From Enterobacteria phage vB_EcoM_IME339: a stretch of DNA of 64,000 bases. Positions 3,652-58,621 of this stretch are shown piece after piece. Position 1 is the first letter of the stretch, and every line of letters begins with the position of its first letter. A program made the translations under genes and the position numbers. The stretch is from the sequence record MH051915. One strand, given 5' to 3'. The notes beneath the pieces are model-generated. The model was not told the DNA's origin, made no database searches, and worked only from the letters and a program-made list of their open reading frames with translations.

Positions 3652-4209
3652 ATGCAGAAAACGAATCCGGGTTTACAGAGACTATTTCAGATTCCGACAT
3701 TTACCCTATCAAACAATGACTTGACTAGTGAAATGAAGGTCAAAATTGCTGATACAGCAAGATACTCTTTAAAACAAAATCCTAATCAGGATAAAGCAGA
3801 AGTTATCGAAAGATGCCGTATTGCGGTGTACGCAGAATTTTTTGTAGCAGATTGGCTGAGCGGGTATGTTAACAAAGGCCAAGAGGATGTTAATGACCCG
3901 TATACATATGCGTGGGATGTACTGGCGCATCCAAAATACTGTGGGCTTCGTGTAGAAGTCAAAACACATCAAACTGACTCACGTTGGATTTCGGTAACAA
4001 CTGGATGCAGTGGAGAGTATCCATACGGTTCTGGAATAAATCTAGGGCCCATTCTGAATCATCAGGTCGCTGACTGTATAATTATATTCAACACTAAAGA
4101 AATTCATCCAGGTGTCATCCAGTACACTCCGAAGTTCATCGGTGATAGAGAAGACCTTCGTAAGGTTGTAAGAAAAAGCAACTACAACGGATGGTATCTT
4201 TCCATTTAA
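3652..4209 (+). CDS. denB: endonuclease IV (dC-DNA specific)
   Basis: 185 aa, same length as T4 DenB; synteny between rIIB and ndd. Confidence 0.75.
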   Translation: MQKTNPGLQRLFQIPTFTLSNNDLTSEMKVKIADTARYSLKQNPNQDKAEVIERCRIAVYAEFFVADWLSGYVNKGQEDVNDPYTYAWDVLAHPKYCGLRVEVKTHQTDSRWISVTTGCSGEYPYGSGINLGPILNHQVADCIIIFNTKEIHPGVIQYTPKFIGDREDLRKVVRKSNYNGWYLSI

Positions 4210-4225
4210 AAATTTTCACAAAACG

Positions 4226-4256
4226 GTTTACATACCACAAGGACTGTGGTACTATA
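4226..4256 (+). promoter_or_regulatory. T4-type early promoter (GTTTAC -35, TACTAT -10)
   Basis: aaacggtttaca...gtggtactatacaactatc matches the conserved early-promoter block seen repeatedly in this window. Confidence 0.5.
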
Positions 4257-4290
4257 CAACTATCAACTGATACGGATTTGGAGAATAAAA

Positions 4291-5442: not shown

Positions 5443-5658
5443 ATGAAAATTTTTAAAGATGTAAAAGTTGGTGAAATTTTCTGTTTAGATAACGGTGATC
5501 AGTTAATTCGTATTTCACCTCTTAAGAGCACTAGCGAGAAACCGACAGTTAATGCTACTTTAGCAAATAATAGTAATGAACGTTTCTGTATTGAAAATGA
5601 TACTGAAACTTATACTGTAGAAGAGTTCTGGGAATTAAGCGTCGACTGCGACGATTAA
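5443..5658 (+). CDS. hypothetical protein (71 aa)
   Basis: ORF with GAGGTG SD. Confidence 0.5.
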   Translation: MKIFKDVKVGEIFCLDNGDQLIRISPLKSTSEKPTVNATLANNSNERFCIENDTETYTVEEFWELSVDCDD

Positions 5659-5718
5659 TTTAATGGCCGTGTGTATTCATGCGGCCTTGGAGTAGAAAAT
5701 AATTTAGAGGAAATTAAT

Positions 5719-6177
5719 ATGAAATATATGACTGTTACTGATCTGAACAATGCAGGCGCTACCGTTATTGGTACAATCAAGAACGGTGAATGGCTTTTGG
5801 GAGTTCCACATAAAGATATTTTATCTAAACCTGGATTTTACTTTTTAGTAAGTAAATTAGATGGTCGTCTATTTAGTAATCCATGTGTGTCTGCACGATT
5901 TTATGTAGGTAATCAACGTTCTAAGCAAGGATTCAGCGCAGTTCTAAGTCATATTCGCCAGCGTCGGTCTCAGCTTGCGCGTACTATTGCAAATAACAAT
6001 GTTACATACACGGTATTTTATTTACCTGCTTCTAAGATGAAACCTCTGACGACGGGATTTGGTAAAGGTCAGTTAGCTTTGGCGTTTACTCGTAATCATC
6101 ATTCTGAGTATCAAACGCTTGAAGAAATGAACCGTATGTTGGCTGATAATTTTAAATTTGTTTTGCAGGCATATTAA
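5719..6177 (+). CDS. ndd: nucleoid disruption protein
   Basis: Begins [13 protein letters not shown] as T4 Ndd does (about 151 aa); GAGG SD; table ORF upstream extension begins with GTG. Confidence 0.8.
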
Positions 6178-8063: not shown

Positions 8064-8088
8064 ATTTCAAAAATTTTTTCACAAAACG

Positions 8089-8118
8089 GTTTACAACCAA
8101 AGCATACTGTGGTACTAT
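8089..8118 (+). promoter_or_regulatory. T4-type early promoter upstream of motA
   Basis: aaaattttttcacaaaacggtttaca...ggtactatacaactatc; same block as at 25286..25339. Confidence 0.55.
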
Positions 8119-8159
8119 ACAACTATCAACTACTGATACAGAATTACGGAGATTAGAAA

Positions 8160-25285: not shown

Positions 25286-25309
25286 TTTCAAAAATTTTTT
25301 CACAAAACT

Positions 25310-25339
25310 GTTTACAAGCATAAAGCTTTATGGTACTAT
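25310..25339 (+). promoter_or_regulatory. T4-type early promoter
   Basis: gtttacaagcataaagctttatggtactat; leading block identical to 8059..8088. Confidence 0.55.
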
Positions 25340-25385
25340 ACAACTATCGGCAATACTGCTGATGATGATTAAAGAGGAAAATAAC

Positions 25386-25657: not shown

Positions 25658-26020
25658 ATGTATACTGGTAGAAAATATGAACTTGTTCCAAGACTTATTG
25701 ATACATTTATTAATTATCGCCCGCGTTCTAATTCATTAATAGTTAAAATTATTCAAGAAAATGGCGGATGGTTTGAAGTTAAAGAAGCTTTCTTTGCTGA
25801 TGGATTTAGAGTAATAAAACACATTGAATGCGCAAATGGAAAGCATTTTTACTTCAACGTCTGTGAAGACGAATTTCATTGTTTTCGTGAGTATAAAGAA
25901 CCGACTTCTGAAGATGAAGTCGAAGACAAGGTTTCTGGCGTAACAAAAATTCACTGCATTGTTGACGAAAACAATGTAGATGAAATCATTGAACTTTTAC
26001 GAAAAACTTTCAAAAAGTAG
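25658..26020 (+). CDS. hypothetical protein (120 aa)
   Basis: ORF with SD. Confidence 0.5.
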   Translation: MYTGRKYELVPRLIDTFINYRPRSNSLIVKIIQENGGWFEVKEAFFADGFRVIKHIECANGKHFYFNVCEDEFHCFREYKEPTSEDEVEDKVSGVTKIHCIVDENNVDEIIELLRKTFKK

Positions 26021-26074
26021 TTTACAGTAGGGTAGTAGTGTGATACTATTACCCTATCAACTAAGGAGAATAAA

Positions 26075-31093: not shown

Positions 31094-32272
31094 ATGAGCA
31101 CAGTTTTTAATACAAATCCAGTTGATGTTTTAAAAGAACCTATGTTCTTCGGTTCAGGTCTTGGTATTGCACGTTATGATATTCAACGCCATAAAGTTTT
31201 TGAAGATTTAACCGAAAAGCAATTGTCATTTTTCTGGCGTCCTGAAGAAGTAAACTTGATGATGGATGCTGCACAATTTAACAAGCTTCCTCAATATCAG
31301 CAAGATATTTTTACTAATAACCTGAAGTATCAATCACTTTTGGATAGCATTCAGGGTCGTGCGCCGTCTGCTGTACTTATATCATTAATTTCAGACCCAA
31401 GTCTTGATACATGGGTTGCTACATGGACTTTTAGTGAAACTATTCACAGCCGTTCATATACTCATATCATGCGAAATCTTTATACTGATCCGTCAAAGGT
31501 ATTTGATGAGATTGTACTAGATAAAGCTATTATGAAACGTGCTGAGTCCATTGGTCGCTATTACGATGATGTTCTTAAGAAGACCCGTGAATGGGAAAAT
31601 GCTAAAGAATTTGTAGAACTAGCTAAAGAATCTCCTGATGCTGATTTTCGTTTAAATCGAGCTATTAAACAAGAAGCCGAAGCTAAACGAGCACTAATGA
31701 AATCTCTTTACCTCTGCCTGCATGTAATCAACGCATTGGAAGCTATTCGTTTTTATGTATCTTTCGCATGTACCTTTAACTTCCATAAGAACATGGAAAT
31801 CATGGAAGGTAATGCCAAGATTATGAAGTTCATTGCTCGTGATGAACAGCTACACCTTAAAGGCACCCAATATATTATTCGTCAACTTCAGCTTGGCACT
31901 GATGGTGATGAATGGGTTAAAATCGCCCAAGAGTGTGAACAAGAAGCAGTTGATATTTTCATGGAAGTTAACCGTCAAGAAAAAGACTGGGCAGTTCATT
32001 TATTTAAAGATGGCGATGTTCCTGGATTAAATACAAATAGCATGTGGAGCTTTATTGATTACTTAACTGTATCTCGTATGAAACAGTGCGGTCTTCCATG
32101 CCCAATTACTGATGCTCCGGTTAAACATCCGTATCCTTGGATTCGTGAATATCTTAATTCTGATAATGTTCAATCAGCGCCACAAGAAGTAGAACTGTCA
32201 TCTTACCTTGTTGCACAGATTGATAATGATGTTGATGATAAAGTTATGATGAGTTTTAAAAAATATTTTTAA
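31094..32272 (+). CDS. nrdB: aerobic ribonucleotide reductase small subunit, uninterrupted (no intron)
   Basis: 392 aa continuous frame; only about 50 bp between nrdA and nrdB. Confidence 0.9.
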   Translation: MSTVFNTNPVDVLKEPMFFGSGLGIARYDIQRHKVFEDLTEKQLSFFWRPEEVNLMMDAAQFNKLPQYQQDIFTNNLKYQSLLDSIQGRAPSAVLISLISDPSLDTWVATWTFSETIHSRSYTHIMRNLYTDPSKVFDEIVLDKAIMKRAESIGRYYDDVLKKTREWENAKEFVELAKESPDADFRLNRAIKQEAEAKRALMKSLYLCLHVINALEAIRFYVSFACTFNFHKNMEIMEGNAKIMKFIARDEQLHLKGTQYIIRQLQLGTDGDEWVKIAQECEQEAVDIFMEVNRQEKDWAVHLFKDGDVPGLNTNSMWSFIDYLTVSRMKQCGLPCPITDAPVKHPYPWIREYLNSDNVQSAPQEVELSSYLVAQIDNDVDDKVMMSFKKYF

Positions 32273-32299
32273 GGAGTGGGCCGCAAGGCCCATTTTATT

Positions 32300-33887
<1,588 letters not shown>

Positions 33888-33890
33888 GCT

Positions 33891-33944
33891 GTTTACAAGT
33901 CCCTCGTGTTGTGTTATAGTAATTTTACTGACATAACATGAGGA
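33891..33944 (+). promoter_or_regulatory. early promoter-like element, copy 1 of a 54-nt exact repeat
   Basis: gtttacaagtccctcgtgttgtgttatagtaattttactgacataacatgagga, identical to 49669..49722. Confidence 0.5.
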
Positions 33945-33948
33945 CTTT

Positions 33949-34455
33949 ATGATGGATTTGCAGCTTATTACTACTGAGATGGTCGTTGAAGCATACGGTG
34001 ATACTACAGATGGGATTTCTGTATTTAAAGGAAATCGTCGAGTTGGATATATCACCGATCTTAAGAAAGATTTAGCTAAGCAAGTCAAGCGGAAAACGAC
34101 CATTAAAGAATATCGAAATCGTCGTCTTGAGCAAGCCCGTGATATGCTTCCTGATGCAGTTGAGGAGATGAAAGTCTTTTTAGAAAATCAGCTTGCGAAA
34201 TATGATTGTGATGTGTTCATTAATCAGACTCAACCTAATGTTCATATCAATAATTGTAAATGCTACATCATCGTTAATCCTTTGACGGGAAAACATCGTC
34301 TTGGAATCAGTAATCCAAATCGTAGCGCATCGGATATGGCAGAAGATGTTGAGGCATGCTTTAAAATTTCTAAATCTCCTGCTGAACATCATATTTTAAT
34401 TAACGGTCTTTCTCAAGACGATATTATAGAGGTTATTAAAACTTTATGCAATTAA
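33949..34455 (+). CDS. alc: Alc, inhibitor of host (dC-DNA) transcription
   Basis: About 167 aa as T4 Alc; synteny after rnlA. Confidence 0.8.
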   Translation: MMDLQLITTEMVVEAYGDTTDGISVFKGNRRVGYITDLKKDLAKQVKRKTTIKEYRNRRLEQARDMLPDAVEEMKVFLENQLAKYDCDVFINQTQPNVHINNCKCYIIVNPLTGKHRLGISNPNRSASDMAEDVEACFKISKSPAEHHILINGLSQDDIIEVIKTLCN

Positions 34456-40454: not shown

Positions 40455-40631
40455 ATGGCAAAACAAGCTAAAGCAAAGAAAGCAGTTGAAAAGAAAGTTG
40501 GTGATTCTAAACGCGCTGGTTACAAGCGTGGGTCGAACTCTCGTATCAATCAAACTGTTGAGAAGATCATGCGCCGAGCACGTGCGGTTCTTCGAGATGA
40601 TGCTTCTCGTTTTGGTAAGCAGAAAGCATAA
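40455..40631 (+). CDS. small basic hypothetical protein (58 aa)
   Basis: MAKQAKAKKAVEKKVGDSKRAGYKRGSNSR...; internal start of table ORF 40413..40631. Confidence 0.45.
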   Translation: MAKQAKAKKAVEKKVGDSKRAGYKRGSNSRINQTVEKIMRRARAVLRDDASRFGKQKA

Positions 40632-40635
40632 GTTG

Positions 40636-40660
40636 AGGACTCCTTCGGGAGTCCTTTTTT
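40636..40660 (+). terminator. rho-independent terminator
   Basis: aggactccttcgggagtcct then tttttt. Confidence 0.65.
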
Positions 40661-40741
40661 ATTTTCCAAAGATTGCATAAAGTTGTTTACAGTATAGTTC
40701 CTTTGTGATAGTATTATCTTACACAAACAAAGGAGAATAAA

Positions 40742-41074
40742 ATGAAAACGATTAATCTGAACGCTACAGTTAAAACTAAATGCTTCAATGGTAAATATGA
40801 TGAAACTATGTGGTTCTTAATGGCAGTTGAAGGTGATATTATTGAAGTAGAAACAACAGAAGGTATGGGAACAGATTTCACCTTTACAATTCAAGTTCAT
40901 AATTTCTTTACTGGTTGGATTTATGAATTGAATACAGTAATCGTTGGAAAAATTGAACAAAATGAATTGGGTGAATGGTATTATGTTACAGCCCGCCAAC
41001 GTGCCGAACGCTTAATTGAGAAGATGAAAAAAGTTGGTAAACTTGACATGCAACATTGGAAAGTAGTAAAATAA
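40742..41074 (+). CDS. hypothetical protein (110 aa)
   Basis: ORF downstream of an early promoter-like block at 40670..40720. Confidence 0.5.
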   Translation: MKTINLNATVKTKCFNGKYDETMWFLMAVEGDIIEVETTEGMGTDFTFTIQVHNFFTGWIYELNTVIVGKIEQNELGEWYYVTARQRAERLIEKMKKVGKLDMQHWKVVK

Positions 41075-45462: not shown

Positions 45463-45485
45463 AGGCCTTCGGGCCTTTAATTTTA
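45461..45485 (+). terminator. terminator-like hairpin
   Basis: aaaggccttcgggccttt followed by A/T-rich tract. Confidence 0.5.
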
Positions 45486-45514
45486 TAAATAGAATAAACA
45501 CTAGAGAGGATATG

Positions 45515-47611: not shown

Positions 47612-49669
47612 ATGGAACTTATTACAGAATTATTTGACGGCGCTTCGGCGCCGGTTGTTAACTTAAATCCTAAGCATAAAATACCTCAAATTTTTGCTAT
47701 TCAAGCTGGTGAAGAAAGCGTGCTTCCTGGATTTAGATTTTGTACATACACCTCTGGCGGTGATACAAATAAAAACGTTAAGCCAGGCGATAAAATGATG
47801 CATATCGTAATGATAGGTGTTAATGAGAAACTATCATTAGTTAAACTTAAAAACTTGGGTGGAAATCCAATTGGTGTCATTAATGCGGTTTTTGATACTG
47901 CTCTTCAAACAATGAAACAGTATAAAATTGATGCATGCTTATTCCGCGTACTAAAAAGTAAAACAAATGGCGCTGCTCGTCAAATGCAAGTTATTGCTGA
48001 CCGTTTAGTACGTACTAAAGGAGCAGGTCGATATGTTCTTTTAAAGGAAATCTGGGATTATGATAAAAAGTATGCATATATTATGGTTTACCGTAAAAAT
48101 GCCAATTTAGAAGACATTCCAGGTGTACCTCCTATTTCAACTGAGTTATTCACAAAAGTTGAATCAAAGGTTGGTGATGTTTATGTAGATGTTAAAACAG
48201 GTAATGCTGTTCCTAAAGCTGTTGCTGTTGCTGCTTCTATTGCTTTAGAAAATGATAAGCGCACGGATCAAGCTGTTATTCAGAAAACTAAAATTAGTCG
48301 TCGATTAGCAGCACAAGCTCAATATTCTACTGTCGATGCTTCACTACAGGGTGATAGCTTCGCTGCCAAGAAATATCAAGAGTTTGAATCTAAAGTTCCG
48401 GTATATAAAGCAGAAGGACCAATGAACTCTGGCGTTATTCAGATTGGTTCAAACTTCGGCAAAGGAGCTATCGGTGGTATGAGAAGTGCTTCTCGTTTTA
48501 AATCTAACGATTATGAACTAGAAAGCTTCCGAAATCATATTGCATTGGCCCATGCACGTTTACGTGATCCGTCTATCAGGCTGCAGAGCGATATAACACA
48601 TCAAGGTTCTCAAGAATATTTAAAGAATAAAGAATTCTTTGATTATAAAACCGATAAAATTTTGAGCGATCTCGCTGACATTAATATTTCTAATAGCTTT
48701 GATGTTATTAAGAAAATTATCAATGATTTAGTTAAAGGTTCTAAAGCCACGCCAGATGAAAAGGTAGCTATTATTCAATTTGTCATGAATGGCATTTATA
48801 AATTGATTAATGAATCTGCTGCTCAGGCATATGAATACGCAAGCACCGAAGTAACTCCAAAAGGACTGACTCAGGCTGAGTCTAATGTAATTGAAGATTA
48901 TTGTGCAGATTCATATGTTGAAATGAACTCGTTCCTCTTGGGTAAACCAGATTCTACCCGTGAAGAATACATGGAACGAGCTATTAAACACATCGAGACG
49001 CTGGATTCTGCATTCGCCAAAGGATCAGTTCTTCCTCCAGGAACTACGCTTTATCGTGGACAAGAAGTTACTTTTAAAACTTTACGCCATAATATTGAAA
49101 ATAAAATGTTCTATTTCAAGAACTTCGTATCAACATCGCTTAAACCAAATATCTTCGGTGAGCATGGTAAAAACTATATGGCTCTAGATGATTCCGGCGC
49201 AGTATTTTCTGGTGAAGGAGAAGGTTCTGTTGATGCTGAAGATTTAATGCATATGGGTAGTCATTCTGCATATGCTAATGAAGATGCTGAAACTAGCGTA
49301 GGTATGGTAATTAAAGGGGCTGAGCGAATCAAAGTTATCGTTCCAGGTCATTTATCAGGATTTCCATCAGAAGCTGAAGTTATTCTACCGCGTGGAATTT
49401 TGTTGAAGATTAATAAAGTAAGCACGTATATGATGAAAGAAACTGCTTATAACAAGTATCTAATCGAAGGCACAATCGTTCCTCCTTCTGAACAATTAGA
49501 AGAATCGGTATATGATGGCGATCATCTAATGGAAACTGGCGAAGTTCGTCCAATGGCTGGGTTTAATCAATTCCTTGTAGAAGAATCAAAAGAAGAGGAA
49601 AACGAAGTTTCTCAAATCTTGGCTTCTTTGGTTAACATCAACGGAATGTCTAAAAAGTTCAAGATGTAG
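47612..49669 (+). CDS. Alt-like ADP-ribosyltransferase paralogue (tandem)
   Basis: 685 aa; N-terminus MELITELFDGASAPVVNLNPKHKIPQIF and C-terminal YRGQ, FVSTSL, EAEVILPRG shared with alt; central region diverged. Confidence 0.8.
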   Translation: MELITELFDGASAPVVNLNPKHKIPQIFAIQAGEESVLPGFRFCTYTSGGDTNKNVKPGDKMMHIVMIGVNEKLSLVKLKNLGGNPIGVINAVFDTALQTMKQYKIDACLFRVLKSKTNGAARQMQVIADRLVRTKGAGRYVLLKEIWDYDKKYAYIMVYRKNANLEDIPGVPPISTELFTKVESKVGDVYVDVKTGNAVPKAVAVAASIALENDKRTDQAVIQKTKISRRLAAQAQYSTVDASLQGDSFAAKKYQEFESKVPVYKAEGPMNSGVIQIGSNFGKGAIGGMRSASRFKSNDYELESFRNHIALAHARLRDPSIRLQSDITHQGSQEYLKNKEFFDYKTDKILSDLADINISNSFDVIKKIINDLVKGSKATPDEKVAIIQFVMNGIYKLINESAAQAYEYASTEVTPKGLTQAESNVIEDYCADSYVEMNSFLLGKPDSTREEYMERAIKHIETLDSAFAKGSVLPPGTTLYRGQEVTFKTLRHNIENKMFYFKNFVSTSLKPNIFGEHGKNYMALDDSGAVFSGEGEGSVDAEDLMHMGSHSAYANEDAETSVGMVIKGAERIKVIVPGHLSGFPSEAEVILPRGILLKINKVSTYMMKETAYNKYLIEGTIVPPSEQLEESVYDGDHLMETGEVRPMAGFNQFLVEESKEEENEVSQILASLVNINGMSKKFKM

Positions 49670-49722
49670 TTTACAAGTCCCTCGTGTTGTGTTATAGTAA
49701 TTTTACTGACATAACATGAGGA
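49669..49722 (+). promoter_or_regulatory. early promoter-like element, copy 2 of the 54-nt exact repeat
   Basis: Identical to 33891..33944. Confidence 0.5.
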
Positions 49723-49729
49723 ACACAAA

Positions 49730-50020
49730 ATGAAATCTTCTTTACGCTTTTTAGGTCAAGAACTTGTAGTTGAAGGCGTTATTCCTGCTGATAACGCTTT
49801 TAATGAAGCAGTTTATGATGAATTTATCAAAATTTTTGGAACAGATAAAAAGTTCGGAATTTTTCCTTCTGAAAATTTTTCAAAGCCAGAACAGACTGAA
49901 AGCATTTTCCAAGGTGTAGTAACAGGCAAATTTGAGTCAGAAGCTCCGGTAAAAATTGAAGTTTATATTGAAGACAGTTTAGTTGCTTCAGTTGCTGCTT
50001 TTATTTCATTCCGTAAATAA
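49730..50020 (+). CDS. hypothetical protein (96 aa)
   Basis: ORF following the promoter repeat; GAGGAACA SD. Confidence 0.5.
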   Translation: MKSSLRFLGQELVVEGVIPADNAFNEAVYDEFIKIFGTDKKFGIFPSENFSKPEQTESIFQGVVTGKFESEAPVKIEVYIEDSLVASVAAFISFRK

Positions 50021-50026
50021 AAATAT

Positions 50027-50044
50027 GGGGACCTTTCGGTCCCC
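50027..50044. terminator. bidirectional terminator hairpin between convergent genes
   Basis: ggggacctttcggtcccc. Confidence 0.6.
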
Positions 50045-50048
50045 ATTG

Positions 50049-55539: not shown

Positions 55540-56288
55540 TATTGTTTATCCTTCTCAATCAGTTTTAATACGAATCCGCGCTCAGCAGGAATCATTTTCA
55601 TTATTGAATTTAAGCTATAATTACTTTTTACGAGCGTGTGATTGATTTGATAAAAAGTAAATATTTCATCTGGGTTAACTAATAGCTTAAACACATCTAC
55701 TATATCAGTGTATTTTTTTACATACTTATTACAACATGACATATGCAATGTTAAATTAATAGGATTCATTGCATCGAGAATTTTTTCTAATGTTTCTATC
55801 TCGATGGCATCAACAAGTTCTATTTGACTTGATTCGCTAATTTCCTTCCAATCATACCACATTTCATCTACTTGAACGGAATGAATATTTTCAGTAATCA
55901 TCTTTGCTTTATTTTCATAAAACTCAGAAGGAAACTTTAATTTAATTTTAACATTAGCTACATCAAAAACAGGTTCCTTTAATTCTTTTTGATATATTTC
56001 AAATGGAACTGTCTTTTCTTTTTTACATTTTGGACATACAAATGTGACCGGTACTTTAGTTTTACCTATTGACCCTACAAATACCTGCAAAAATATAAAT
56101 GGTTGCCAAGTCTTCGGATAGTCTCCAAAATAATCGGCAATTAAATCAGCAATTATTTCTTTTTGTTCTTGTGGTGACCGATGTTCTATATCGTTTCGAA
56201 CTAACAAAAAATCTCGATAATCTTCTACCGTAAATGGTTTAAAACGATGAACACCATCTGGTAATTTACAACGAATAATGTTTGCCAT
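55539..56288 (-). CDS. 51: baseplate hub assembly catalyst gp51
   Basis: 249 aa, same length as T4 gp51. Confidence 0.85.
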
Positions 56289-56305: not shown

Positions 56306-56317
56306 TATTTATAAATA
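56306..56317. promoter_or_regulatory. divergent overlapping late promoters (TATAAATA on both strands) between genes 51 and 26
   Basis: tatttataaata: minus-strand TATAAATA at 56306..56313, plus-strand TATAAATA at 56310..56317. Confidence 0.55.
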
Positions 56318-58318: not shown

Positions 58319-58621
58319 TTAAAAGCTTTCTTCTACTTCATCGTCTGAATCTTCTAATTCAGCTCTTTTTCCTGCCAAAGCATCTCTCACAGAGATGTCA
58401 TCAGTATCTTTTAATTCAGTTTCTTTAACTCTTTTCTTATAATAAGCTTCAAGTTCTTCTAGACCTTCTAATGTTTGACAATCTTTAACTCTTTTCTTAT
58501 AATAAGCTTCAAGTTCTTCTAGACCTTCTAATGTTTGACAAGAGGCAATTTTACCCATAAATTCATCAATAGAAGCTTCATAAAGAAATTGTTTAAATTC
58601 TAGTAACATCTTTTTCTCCAA
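58319..58621 (-). CDS. uvsW.1: UvsW.1-like small acidic protein with internal 20-aa tandem duplication
   Basis: 100 aa immediately downstream of uvsW on the same strand; duplicated CQTLEGLEELEAYYKKRVK block. Confidence 0.65.
   Translation of the reverse strand: MEKKMLLEFKQFLYEASIDEFMGKIASCQTLEGLEELEAYYKKRVKDCQTLEGLEELEAYYKKRVKETELKDTDDISVRDALAGKRAELEDSDDEVEESF
58422..58541. repeat. perfect 60-bp tandem duplication (2 copies), in frame within uvsW.1
   Basis: 58422..58481 is identical to 58482..58541. Confidence 0.85.

Follow-up and report, generated by a model that had tools for sequence, protein, structure and literature searches.

Two copies of an early-promoter cassette in a T4-type phage, with a promoter spacer predicted to pair with the Shine-Dalgarno sequence of alc and alt.-3

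Two identical cassettes upstream of alc and alt.-3

The window, by which we mean the whole 64,000-nt stretch of Enterobacteria phage vB_EcoM_IME339 (record MH051915), is Tequatrovirus DNA with ~98-99% identity to many T4-like coliphages. Its early genes run, from left to right, nrdB, denA, rnlA, alc, pseT, cd, 31, 30, alt, a second alt-like gene (the homologue of T4 alt.-2) and alt.-3, with late gene 54 next after alt.-3 and convergent with it. An earlier note on this DNA had reported an exact direct repeat in this region, and we confirmed that the 54-mer GTTTACAAGTCCCTCGTGTTGTGTTATAGTAATTTTACTGACATAACATGAGGA has two exact + strand matches, at 33891-33944 and 49669-49722, whose starts are 15,778 bp apart; no third site with three or fewer mismatches was found in the window, and none in 100 shuffles. 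Identity ends sharply at both borders (...aagct before and cttt after copy 1 vs ...atgta and acac at copy 2). Copy 1 fills most of the gap between the rnlA stop (taa, 33885-33887; the copy begins 4 nt later) and the start of alc, the inhibitor of host transcription (33952-34455, + strand, from the ORF list and relatives' annotations). It ends 4 nt before an extra in-frame ATG at 33949 and 7 nt before the ATG at 33952, which is the start annotated in T4. Copy 2 lies upstream of alt.-3 (49730-50020, + strand; a 96-aa product from the ORF list with tblastn matches in 835 phage records), whose ATG comes 7 nt after the copy end, and its first G is at the same time the last letter of the TAG stop (49667-49669) with which the second alt-like gene (47612-49669) closes. 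Both copies are thus directly preceded by the 3' end of a coding gene, and T4 has an equivalent of each, before alc and before alt.-3.

Both copies carry an early promoter of the sigma-70 type on the + strand. Copy 1 (promoter at 33892-33920) has a -35 hexamer TTTACA (33892-33897), a 17-nt spacer with TG at 33912-33913, and a -10 hexamer TATAGT (33915-33920), and copy 2 (49670-49698) has TTTACA at 49670-49675 and TATAGT at 49693-49698. In a consensus scan both sites scored 10/12, with a TG extended -10 (TGnTATAGT), and both agree with the T4/PST early-promoter consensus TTTACW-N17-TAYWAT (PMC4122927). The early-promoter reading put forward in the earlier note is supported by these sequence elements, which T4 also has before alc and alt.-3, and both promoters are probably already in the published lists of T4 early promoters. 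The predicted transcription starts, placed 7 nt beyond the -10 end, would be A33927 and A49705, corresponding to T4 minus-strand positions of about 136,300 and 123,057. The last bases of each copy are the Shine-Dalgarno (SD) sequence GAGGA (33940-33944 and 49718-49722). By eye, an A/T-rich run (aaaaattataaaaaattt) lies ~20-38 nt 5' of the alc -35 hexamer, and none is obvious at alt.-3.

The copies have the GTTTAC(A) -35 element, 17-nt spacer, TG and TAnnnT -10 element in common with the canonical T4 early promoters (Pe) of the window, represented by repeat families D1, D3, D5 and D7. These and the remaining early-promoter-like repeat families are only 60-84% alike, which makes a 100% pair exceptional within the window. 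The canonical promoters have A/T-rich tracts upstream and often follow a terminator, whereas the 54-mer copies directly follow coding sequence; apart from the promoter at 40686, they also lack the pairing with the downstream SD that is predicted for the 54-mer copies. Short palindromes occur in the -35/-10 spacers of families D1, D3, D5 and D7 (4208-4268, 8071-8131, 25292-25352 and 26002-26062; for example, ACCACAAGGACTGTGGT and CATAAAGCTTTATG) and stop short of the SD, and the alt.-3 promoters of other genera likewise have spacer palindromes not reaching the SD. T4-type early promoters may in general have such spacer palindromes, as yet unexplained. Among other repeats of the window, direct-repeat families D4, D12 and D15 (~72-78% identity, with 2.1 kb between copies) trace back to the alt/alt.-2 duplication, and an exact 60-bp tandem duplication (58422-58541) repeats 20 amino acids (CQTLEGLEELEAYYKKRVKD/E) in frame within a - strand ORF (58319-58621), on the strand opposite the early genes and by position apparently a uvsW.1 homologue. 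This duplication could be recent slippage or recombination, or an assembly artefact.

The earlier note had proposed looking for the 54-mer in related phages, and it is widespread there: blastn found 995 places in 498 phage records, T4 included, at 90-100% identity, with ~2 per Tequatrovirus genome. At that level of identity a 100% pair is unexceptional among relatives. The T4 copies differ from the window 54-mer at 2 and 3 positions, AATT of both window copies being AGTC in both T4 copies. Among 13 genomes in which both copies were read, paralogs differ at 0-5 positions, with 0 only in the window and one metagenome contig, and phages FelixPlatter and SA20RB share the 104-nt alc-locus sequence of the window without a single difference. 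Both loci are present in the same order in 10/10 complete or near-complete genomes fetched and in 3 metagenome contigs. Scans of IMG/VR and metagenomes with the 54-mer gave only 6 and 8 stretches, and the population comparison drew on INPHARED records instead. An Rfam search placed no family over the cassette, its sole hit being a sub-threshold chance match at 40587-40670.

A predicted hairpin from promoter spacer to ribosome site

When RNA that enters from upstream is folded, each cassette is predicted to form a long hairpin that includes the SD. At alc (33897-33947, + strand) the 5' arm comprises 33897-33902 and 33904-33915 in the promoter spacer, from which C33903 bulges out, the apex helix is formed by 33918-21/33926-29, and the 3' arm comprises 33930-33941 and 33942-33947, with the SD (33940-33944) inside. 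The alt.-3 hairpin (49677-49724, + strand) pairs 49677-78/49723-24 and 49680-49693/49708-49721, with an apex at 49696-99/49704-07 and the SD again in the stem. The minimum free energy (MFE) is -27.3 kcal/mol for 33885-33960 (z -5.8; 0/200 shuffles as stable) and -24.6 kcal/mol for 49663-49738 (z -5.1; no shuffle as stable). In both cases a stem of 18-22 bp extends from just past the -35 hexamer to the SD, the apex consists of the -10 hexamer and a 4-bp helix, and the 3' arm is made of the leader, the SD and 2-3 locus-specific bases outside the repeat. The imperfect inverted repeat that the earlier note saw around the -10 region is therefore real, but it is merely the inner part of this ~22-bp hairpin.

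The predicted unpaired probability of the SD in read-through RNA is 0.00 at both copies. Because the 5' arm lies within the -35/-10 spacer, upstream of any start there, it is absent from the RNA of the embedded promoter; RNAs from the predicted starts contain the 3' arm alone and are nearly unstructured (-4.8 kcal/mol for alc and -2.2 kcal/mol for alt.-3). The predicted cost of opening the region from SD to AUG accordingly differs between the two kinds of RNA, at 9.8 kcal/mol in read-through vs 1.7 in own-promoter RNA for alc, and 14.1 vs 3.3 kcal/mol for alt.-3. When 68 SD-preceded ORF starts of the window were ranked by opening cost (median 4.3, 90th percentile 8.0 kcal/mol), alc came first (20.4 kcal/mol) and alt.-3 joint second (16.4 kcal/mol). 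The switch from a closed to an open SD was found in 3/10 early-promoter cassettes of the window, namely alc, alt.-3 and 40686. Neither stem is followed by a U-tract (alc CUUUAUGAUGG; alt.-3 AACACAAAAUG), and a terminator scan left both hairpins unflagged, though it flagged 50025-50046 and 40635-40656. Some variants have weakened stems, such as the alt.-3 copy of LF73P3 (-14.6 kcal/mol).

Two other elements of the cassette were considered and dropped. A mini-ORF (ATGAGGACTTTATGA / ATGAGGAACACAAAATGA) with a stop that overlaps the gene start has no SD and would begin ~11 nt from the predicted 5' end. We also compared UUGUGUUAUAGUAA with AAAAUUGUUAUGUAA, the SELEX consensus of the RegA operator, and set this likeness aside, as UUGUGUUAUAGUAA precedes the predicted start and is ~25 nt away from the AUG.

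Structured leaders were also predicted elsewhere in the window. The third cassette (40686-40744; GTTTACAGTATAGTTCCTTTGTGATAGTAT...CAAAGGAGAATAAAATG), upstream of a 110-aa ORF (40742-41074) at the position of T4 gene 30.8, follows the same logic with unrelated sequence: pairing of its spacer UUCCUUUGU with ACAAAGGAG is predicted, with a fold of -18.9 kcal/mol (z -3.4) and an SD opening cost of 12.1 vs 0.5 kcal/mol. It comes after the terminator at 40635-40656 and has the classic look of a promoter-early stem-loop (PeSL) cassette. At the denA-like start (ATG 32300), a GC hairpin and T-run (GGGCCGCAAGGCCC TTTTATT; 32262-32302) lie between the SD AAGGAG and the ATG, with an opening cost of 16.4 kcal/mol; by analogy with T4 genes 38 and 25, this may be a terminator that also draws the SD near the AUG. 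The divergent ORF starts at 56288 (-) and 56339 (+) have predicted SD opening costs of 10.6 and 11.0 kcal/mol, with overlapping TATAAATA motifs on both strands between them (56306-56317), and may mark a divergent late-promoter region with structured leaders.

Covariation at alc and the origin of the alt.-3 copy

Sequences of the rnlA-alc gap were taken from INPHARED genomes of other genera and from 41 IMG/VR loci. In most alc cassettes an anti-SD run (UCUCC, UCCUC, CCCUC and similar) comes right after GTTTACA and the 3' arm closes with the SD; the rnlA stop lies 0-3 nt before GTTTAC in other genera. This design is kept in Dhaka-, Jiaoda-, Gelderland-, Karam-, Winkler-, Gualtar- and Gaprivervirus, with fold z scores of -2.9 to -7.1 (seven sequences), and in Gualtarvirus the anti-SD is placed between the -10 element and the start site. 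The arm sequences diverge while their complementarity stays, as seen in the pairs AUCUCCGUUU/AAACGGAGAU, AUCCUCAUCAG/CUGAUGAGGAU, UCCUCAUUUCGUUG/CAACGAAAUGAGGA and CCUCUCGUUUUUG/CAAAAACGAGAGG, and further arm pairs that differ between genera are CCGUUUUG/CAAACGG, CUCAUCAG/CUGAUGAG and CCUCGUGUU/AACAUGAGG. A cross-genus MAFFT alignment misplaced the 3' arms, and pairs were counted per sequence from MFE structures anchored at the -35 hexamer. At least 3/4 of the SD bases are paired with the promoter spacer in 27 of 33 distinct alc cassettes. Since every sequence was folded by itself to define the partners, the value of 100% paired is partly by construction, and the weight lies on the z scores and on the both-side (compensatory) changes, which were found in 13 of 15 stem columns. 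In a seven-sequence subset, both-side changes occur in 10/13 columns and the observed pairing was unmatched by any partner shuffle. Within Tequatrovirus, one stem pair forms the series C-G to U.G (T6, T2) to U-A (PV654517), and where the alt.-3 copy has a C/A mismatch, T6-type copies have U-A, which suits the alt.-3-specific flank.

On these sequence comparisons, the covariation proves selection for pairing, without telling whether it acts on RNA or on DNA. Across 27 cassettes of the whole family, sense and antisense strands are equally stable (-19.8 vs -19.7 kcal/mol; 13 vs 14 cassettes), so that strand asymmetry cannot settle the level, and the sense RNA is favoured only in Tequatrovirus, where three G.U pairs give it ~9 kcal/mol over the antisense. 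SD sequestration at alc is absent in Mosigvirus and a few other lineages, and the design is therefore dispensable. The locus also has local variations, one being Gaprivervirus VR20 (locus L026, 5448-5770), which contains an additional small alc-like ORF (5520-5753) between rnlA and alc. This ORF is preceded by a terminator, with a -35-like TGTACA in its loop, and by its own SD-sequestering hairpin, and the full-length alc next after it has no promoter of its own.

The alt.-3 copy has a different history. In Marfa-, Karam-, Mosig-, Gapriver- and Dhakavirus the alt.-3 early promoters are of another, mutually similar type (GTTTACAAcACCACAAGGAyGTGG...ACATGAGGA) with an open SD, for which the opening cost is 1-6 vs 16.5 kcal/mol in the window, and in Dhakavirus the alc cassette can be recognised as a homologue of the Tequatrovirus 54-mer (TGTGTTAGTATAGACTTAC vs TGTGTTATAGTAGACTTAC). 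Given an open and different alt.-3 promoter in five other genera, the parsimonious reading of the sequences is that the alt.-3 promoter of the Tequatrovirus ancestor was replaced by a copy of the alc cassette, in which case the shared GTTTACA and CATGAGGA microhomologies would mark the limits of the converted tract. The gene upstream of this copy also varies. The second Alt-like ADP-ribosyltransferase (47612-49669) is full length in the window phage, as in T2, T6 and many others, and T4, with a deletion in alt.-2 just upstream of the cassette, retains only the remnants alt.-1 and alt.-2 (locus L001, 11066-11451); the same 3' end abuts the cassette in both versions.

Since the replacement, the copies appear to have exchanged sequence. 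Between 20 alc and 22 alt.-3 copies there are 0 fixed differences and 3 haplotypes in common, 7 of the 8 polymorphic sites at alc are polymorphic at alt.-3 too (hypergeometric 7e-5), and paralog distance is 2.62 within vs 3.09 between genomes (permutation p ~0.02, 13 genomes). This modest evidence suggests occasional non-reciprocal exchange (gene conversion) between the copies, and is suggestive only, because several of the shared polymorphic sites lie in the unconstrained loop. The loop variant of the window, AATTTT, is rare at alc and commoner at alt.-3, a pattern that is likewise only suggestive of a recent alt.-3-to-alc conversion in the window's lineage that would have produced the 54/54 identity.

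A possible translational gate and its alternatives

From predicted folds and covariation, we consider it probable that the cassette unites a T4-type early promoter with an RNA hairpin over the SD of the next gene, ancient at alc and copied before alt.-3. The -35/-10 spacer would double as an anti-SD arm: in RNA entering from upstream, it would pair with the leader and SD and bury the ribosome site, whereas RNA from the embedded promoter would start inside the hairpin apex and carry the 3' arm alone, leaving the SD open. Translation of alc and alt.-3 would thereby be tied to their own immediate-early promoters, and read-through RNA would be silent or only weakly coupled. A ribosome ending at the adjacent upstream stop could melt the stem base, in which case such RNA may be coupled instead of silent. 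The upstream RNA at alc would come from early or middle promoters before nrdA, nrdB and rnlA; in T4, PnrdA, PnrdB and PI-TevIII are middle promoters located upstream of rnlA/alc (PMC2988021, Table 1). At alt.-3 it would come from the late promoter of alt, for which a motif search found TATAAATA at 45484-45491 (+ strand), 21 nt upstream of the alt start (ATG 45512), the likely source of late RNA running through alt and the alt.-2-like gene into alt.-3. A terminator-like hairpin between alt.-3 and gene 54 (50025-50046), flagged on both strands, ends the transcription unit.

Several lines of evidence favour translational gating. The 3' arm coincides with the SD though leader length is free to vary, the hairpin is escaped only by the promoter's own RNA, and RNA from upstream is expected at both genes from the middle promoters, the late motif before alt and the terminator placed after alt.-3. 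Timing in T4 agrees as well, since time-resolved omics (PMC9697503) place Alc and Alt.-3 among the early RNAs and early proteins, with rnlA as early RNA and late protein and alt as late. The logic also matches that of T4 e, soc, 49 and I-TevI, with the timing reversed.

A stem of ~22 bp is of RNase III substrate size, sense and antisense fold equally well family-wide as a true DNA palindrome would, and the PeSL papers regard such stem-loops as attenuators (PMC2839356), all of which would fit a hairpin that acts on DNA, as a cruciform affecting promoter activity or recombination, or in RNA processing such as an RNase III cut between the genes. We regard this as unlikely, given that the SD is inside the 3' arm in 27/33 cassettes despite a free leader length, that Tequatrovirus sense RNA is the more stable strand, and that the stem has no U-tract and drew no call in the terminator scan. 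The copies may instead be plain paralogous early promoters of recent ancestry, strong ones under ordinary promoter constraint, with an incidental hairpin that has no role in RNA. Both sites do match the T4 early consensus, and Tequatrovirus genomes are so little diverged (a few percent) that duplication at the base of the genus would alone yield 90-100% paralog identity. Spacers are normally unconstrained, however, yet complementarity between spacer and SD is kept across genera with both-side changes in nearly all stem columns, folding z scores reach down to -7, and seven other early promoters of the window have no such pairing, so that we find this explanation improbable.

Translational coupling, in which the SD would become accessible only when a ribosome at the end of rnlA or alt.-2 melts the stem base and long RNAs would give Alc or Alt.-3 only in step with the upstream protein, would explain why the upstream stop abuts the cassette (the TAG overlapping its first G at alt.-3, the TAA 4 nt before it at alc, and the rnlA stop at 0-3 nt in other genera), the first bases that pair with the SD lying 7-8 nt from its start. 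Of an 18-22 bp stem, however, no more than the first few pairs would be opened by a ribosome at the upstream stop, and in T4 the upstream products (rnlA protein, alt) are late while Alc and Alt.-3 appear early, which is the reverse of what coupling would give and leaves a coupling device quite improbable. The earlier note itself had suggested an operator-like site, presumably one for an early protein of the phage, and direct repeats through which the intervening 15.8-kb alc-to-alt block could be excised or duplicated by recombination. In favour of recombination, a repeat of 54 bp is close to the shortest homology that T4 recombination uses (Singer 1982, as cited in PMC2839356), nearby PeSL cassettes recombine to give mini-circles in RB49/phi1 (PMC2839356), and shared polymorphisms suggest that the copies exchange sequence. 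Against it, both copies are retained in ~498 genomes, gene order is the same in all genomes fetched, and none of these has an empty-site or duplicated variant. DNA ligase (gene 30) and gene 31, both in the block, are essential in T4, which would make deletion lethal, and T4 terminal redundancy is a few percent, so that a 15.8-kb tandem duplication would exceed the headful slack. Reciprocal recombination between the copies may occur at low frequency without viable progeny. As for the operator, the arm sequences drift across genera while complementarity is kept, which is the signature of base pairing and argues against a sequence-specific protein site. We therefore consider an operator with excision highly improbable, and the first interpretation of the repeat is only partly supported.

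The translational gate has close relatives among known systems. In T4 e (lysozyme), soc, 49 and I-TevI, the SD or AUG lies in a helix of the upstream RNA, and a promoter inside or just before the helix gives an RNA without the 5' arm that is translated, which uncouples translation from read-through (review PMC3014915). The 54-nt cassette, as modelled, has both features of this type, an SD paired in upstream RNA and an own RNA without the 5' arm. It differs in the class of its internal promoter, which in those four genes is late, depends on gp55 and serves to silence early read-through, and in the cassette is of the early sigma-70 type; a motif search found no TATAAATA late motif within it. The cassette also has its anti-SD arm written into the -35/-10 spacer, exists in two near-identical copies and is a prediction, and alc is not mentioned in the review (PMC3014915).

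The cassette also resembles the PeSL cassettes of T4-type phages (Arbiol 2010, PMC2839356; Comeau 2014, PMC4122927), in which a sigma-70-like early promoter is combined with a stem-loop, which may be placed between -35 and -10 or over -10, and with an SD at the 3' end. Both copies are PeSL units in extent and content, reaching from the upstream stop to the downstream ATG with early promoter, stem-loop and SD, and like PeSLs, which are repeated, recombining and moving regulatory modules, the 54-mer is repeated in its genome. PeSL stem-loops are, however, terminators or attenuators, typically GGGG..CCCC, whereas the cassette stem has no U-tract and pairs with the SD, and the 2010 paper (PMC2839356) mentions neither sequestration nor translation. 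PeSLs cluster by indels in hyperplastic regions, whereas the 54-mer copies lie 15.8 kb apart around conserved, essential genes, and what can be seen at the 54-mer is promoter replacement and conversion in place of genes gained or lost. With respect to flank changes of the PeSL type, the order of the block between the copies is constant in all genomes fetched, while the cassette replaced the alt.-3 promoter and T4 has the alt.-2 deletion. The alc gate and the replacement of the alt.-3 promoter are undescribed in the T4 reviews and PeSL papers, as far as these show.

In its fullest form, our proposal is of a dual-coded promoter of the Tevenvirinae through which Alc would be made only from the RNA of its own promoter, within the first minutes of infection, and never from middle or late read-through RNA, and of a movable gate that was pasted before alt.-3 and homogenised by conversion; taken as a whole, we put this forward as a tentative possibility. 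For annotation, repeats of this kind should not be taken as the borders of mobile or excisable segments. The alt.-3 copy would offer a clean natural example of ectopic conversion, the process proposed for PeSLs, in which one cassette displaces a different promoter, and the gate would provide a testable explanation for the early-only timing of Alc and Alt.-3 although later RNA crosses both genes. If gating is true, a promoter spacer, usually treated as free sequence, can hold a second, RNA-level code, and the T4 trick of placing a promoter in an inhibitory hairpin would extend from late to immediate-early genes.
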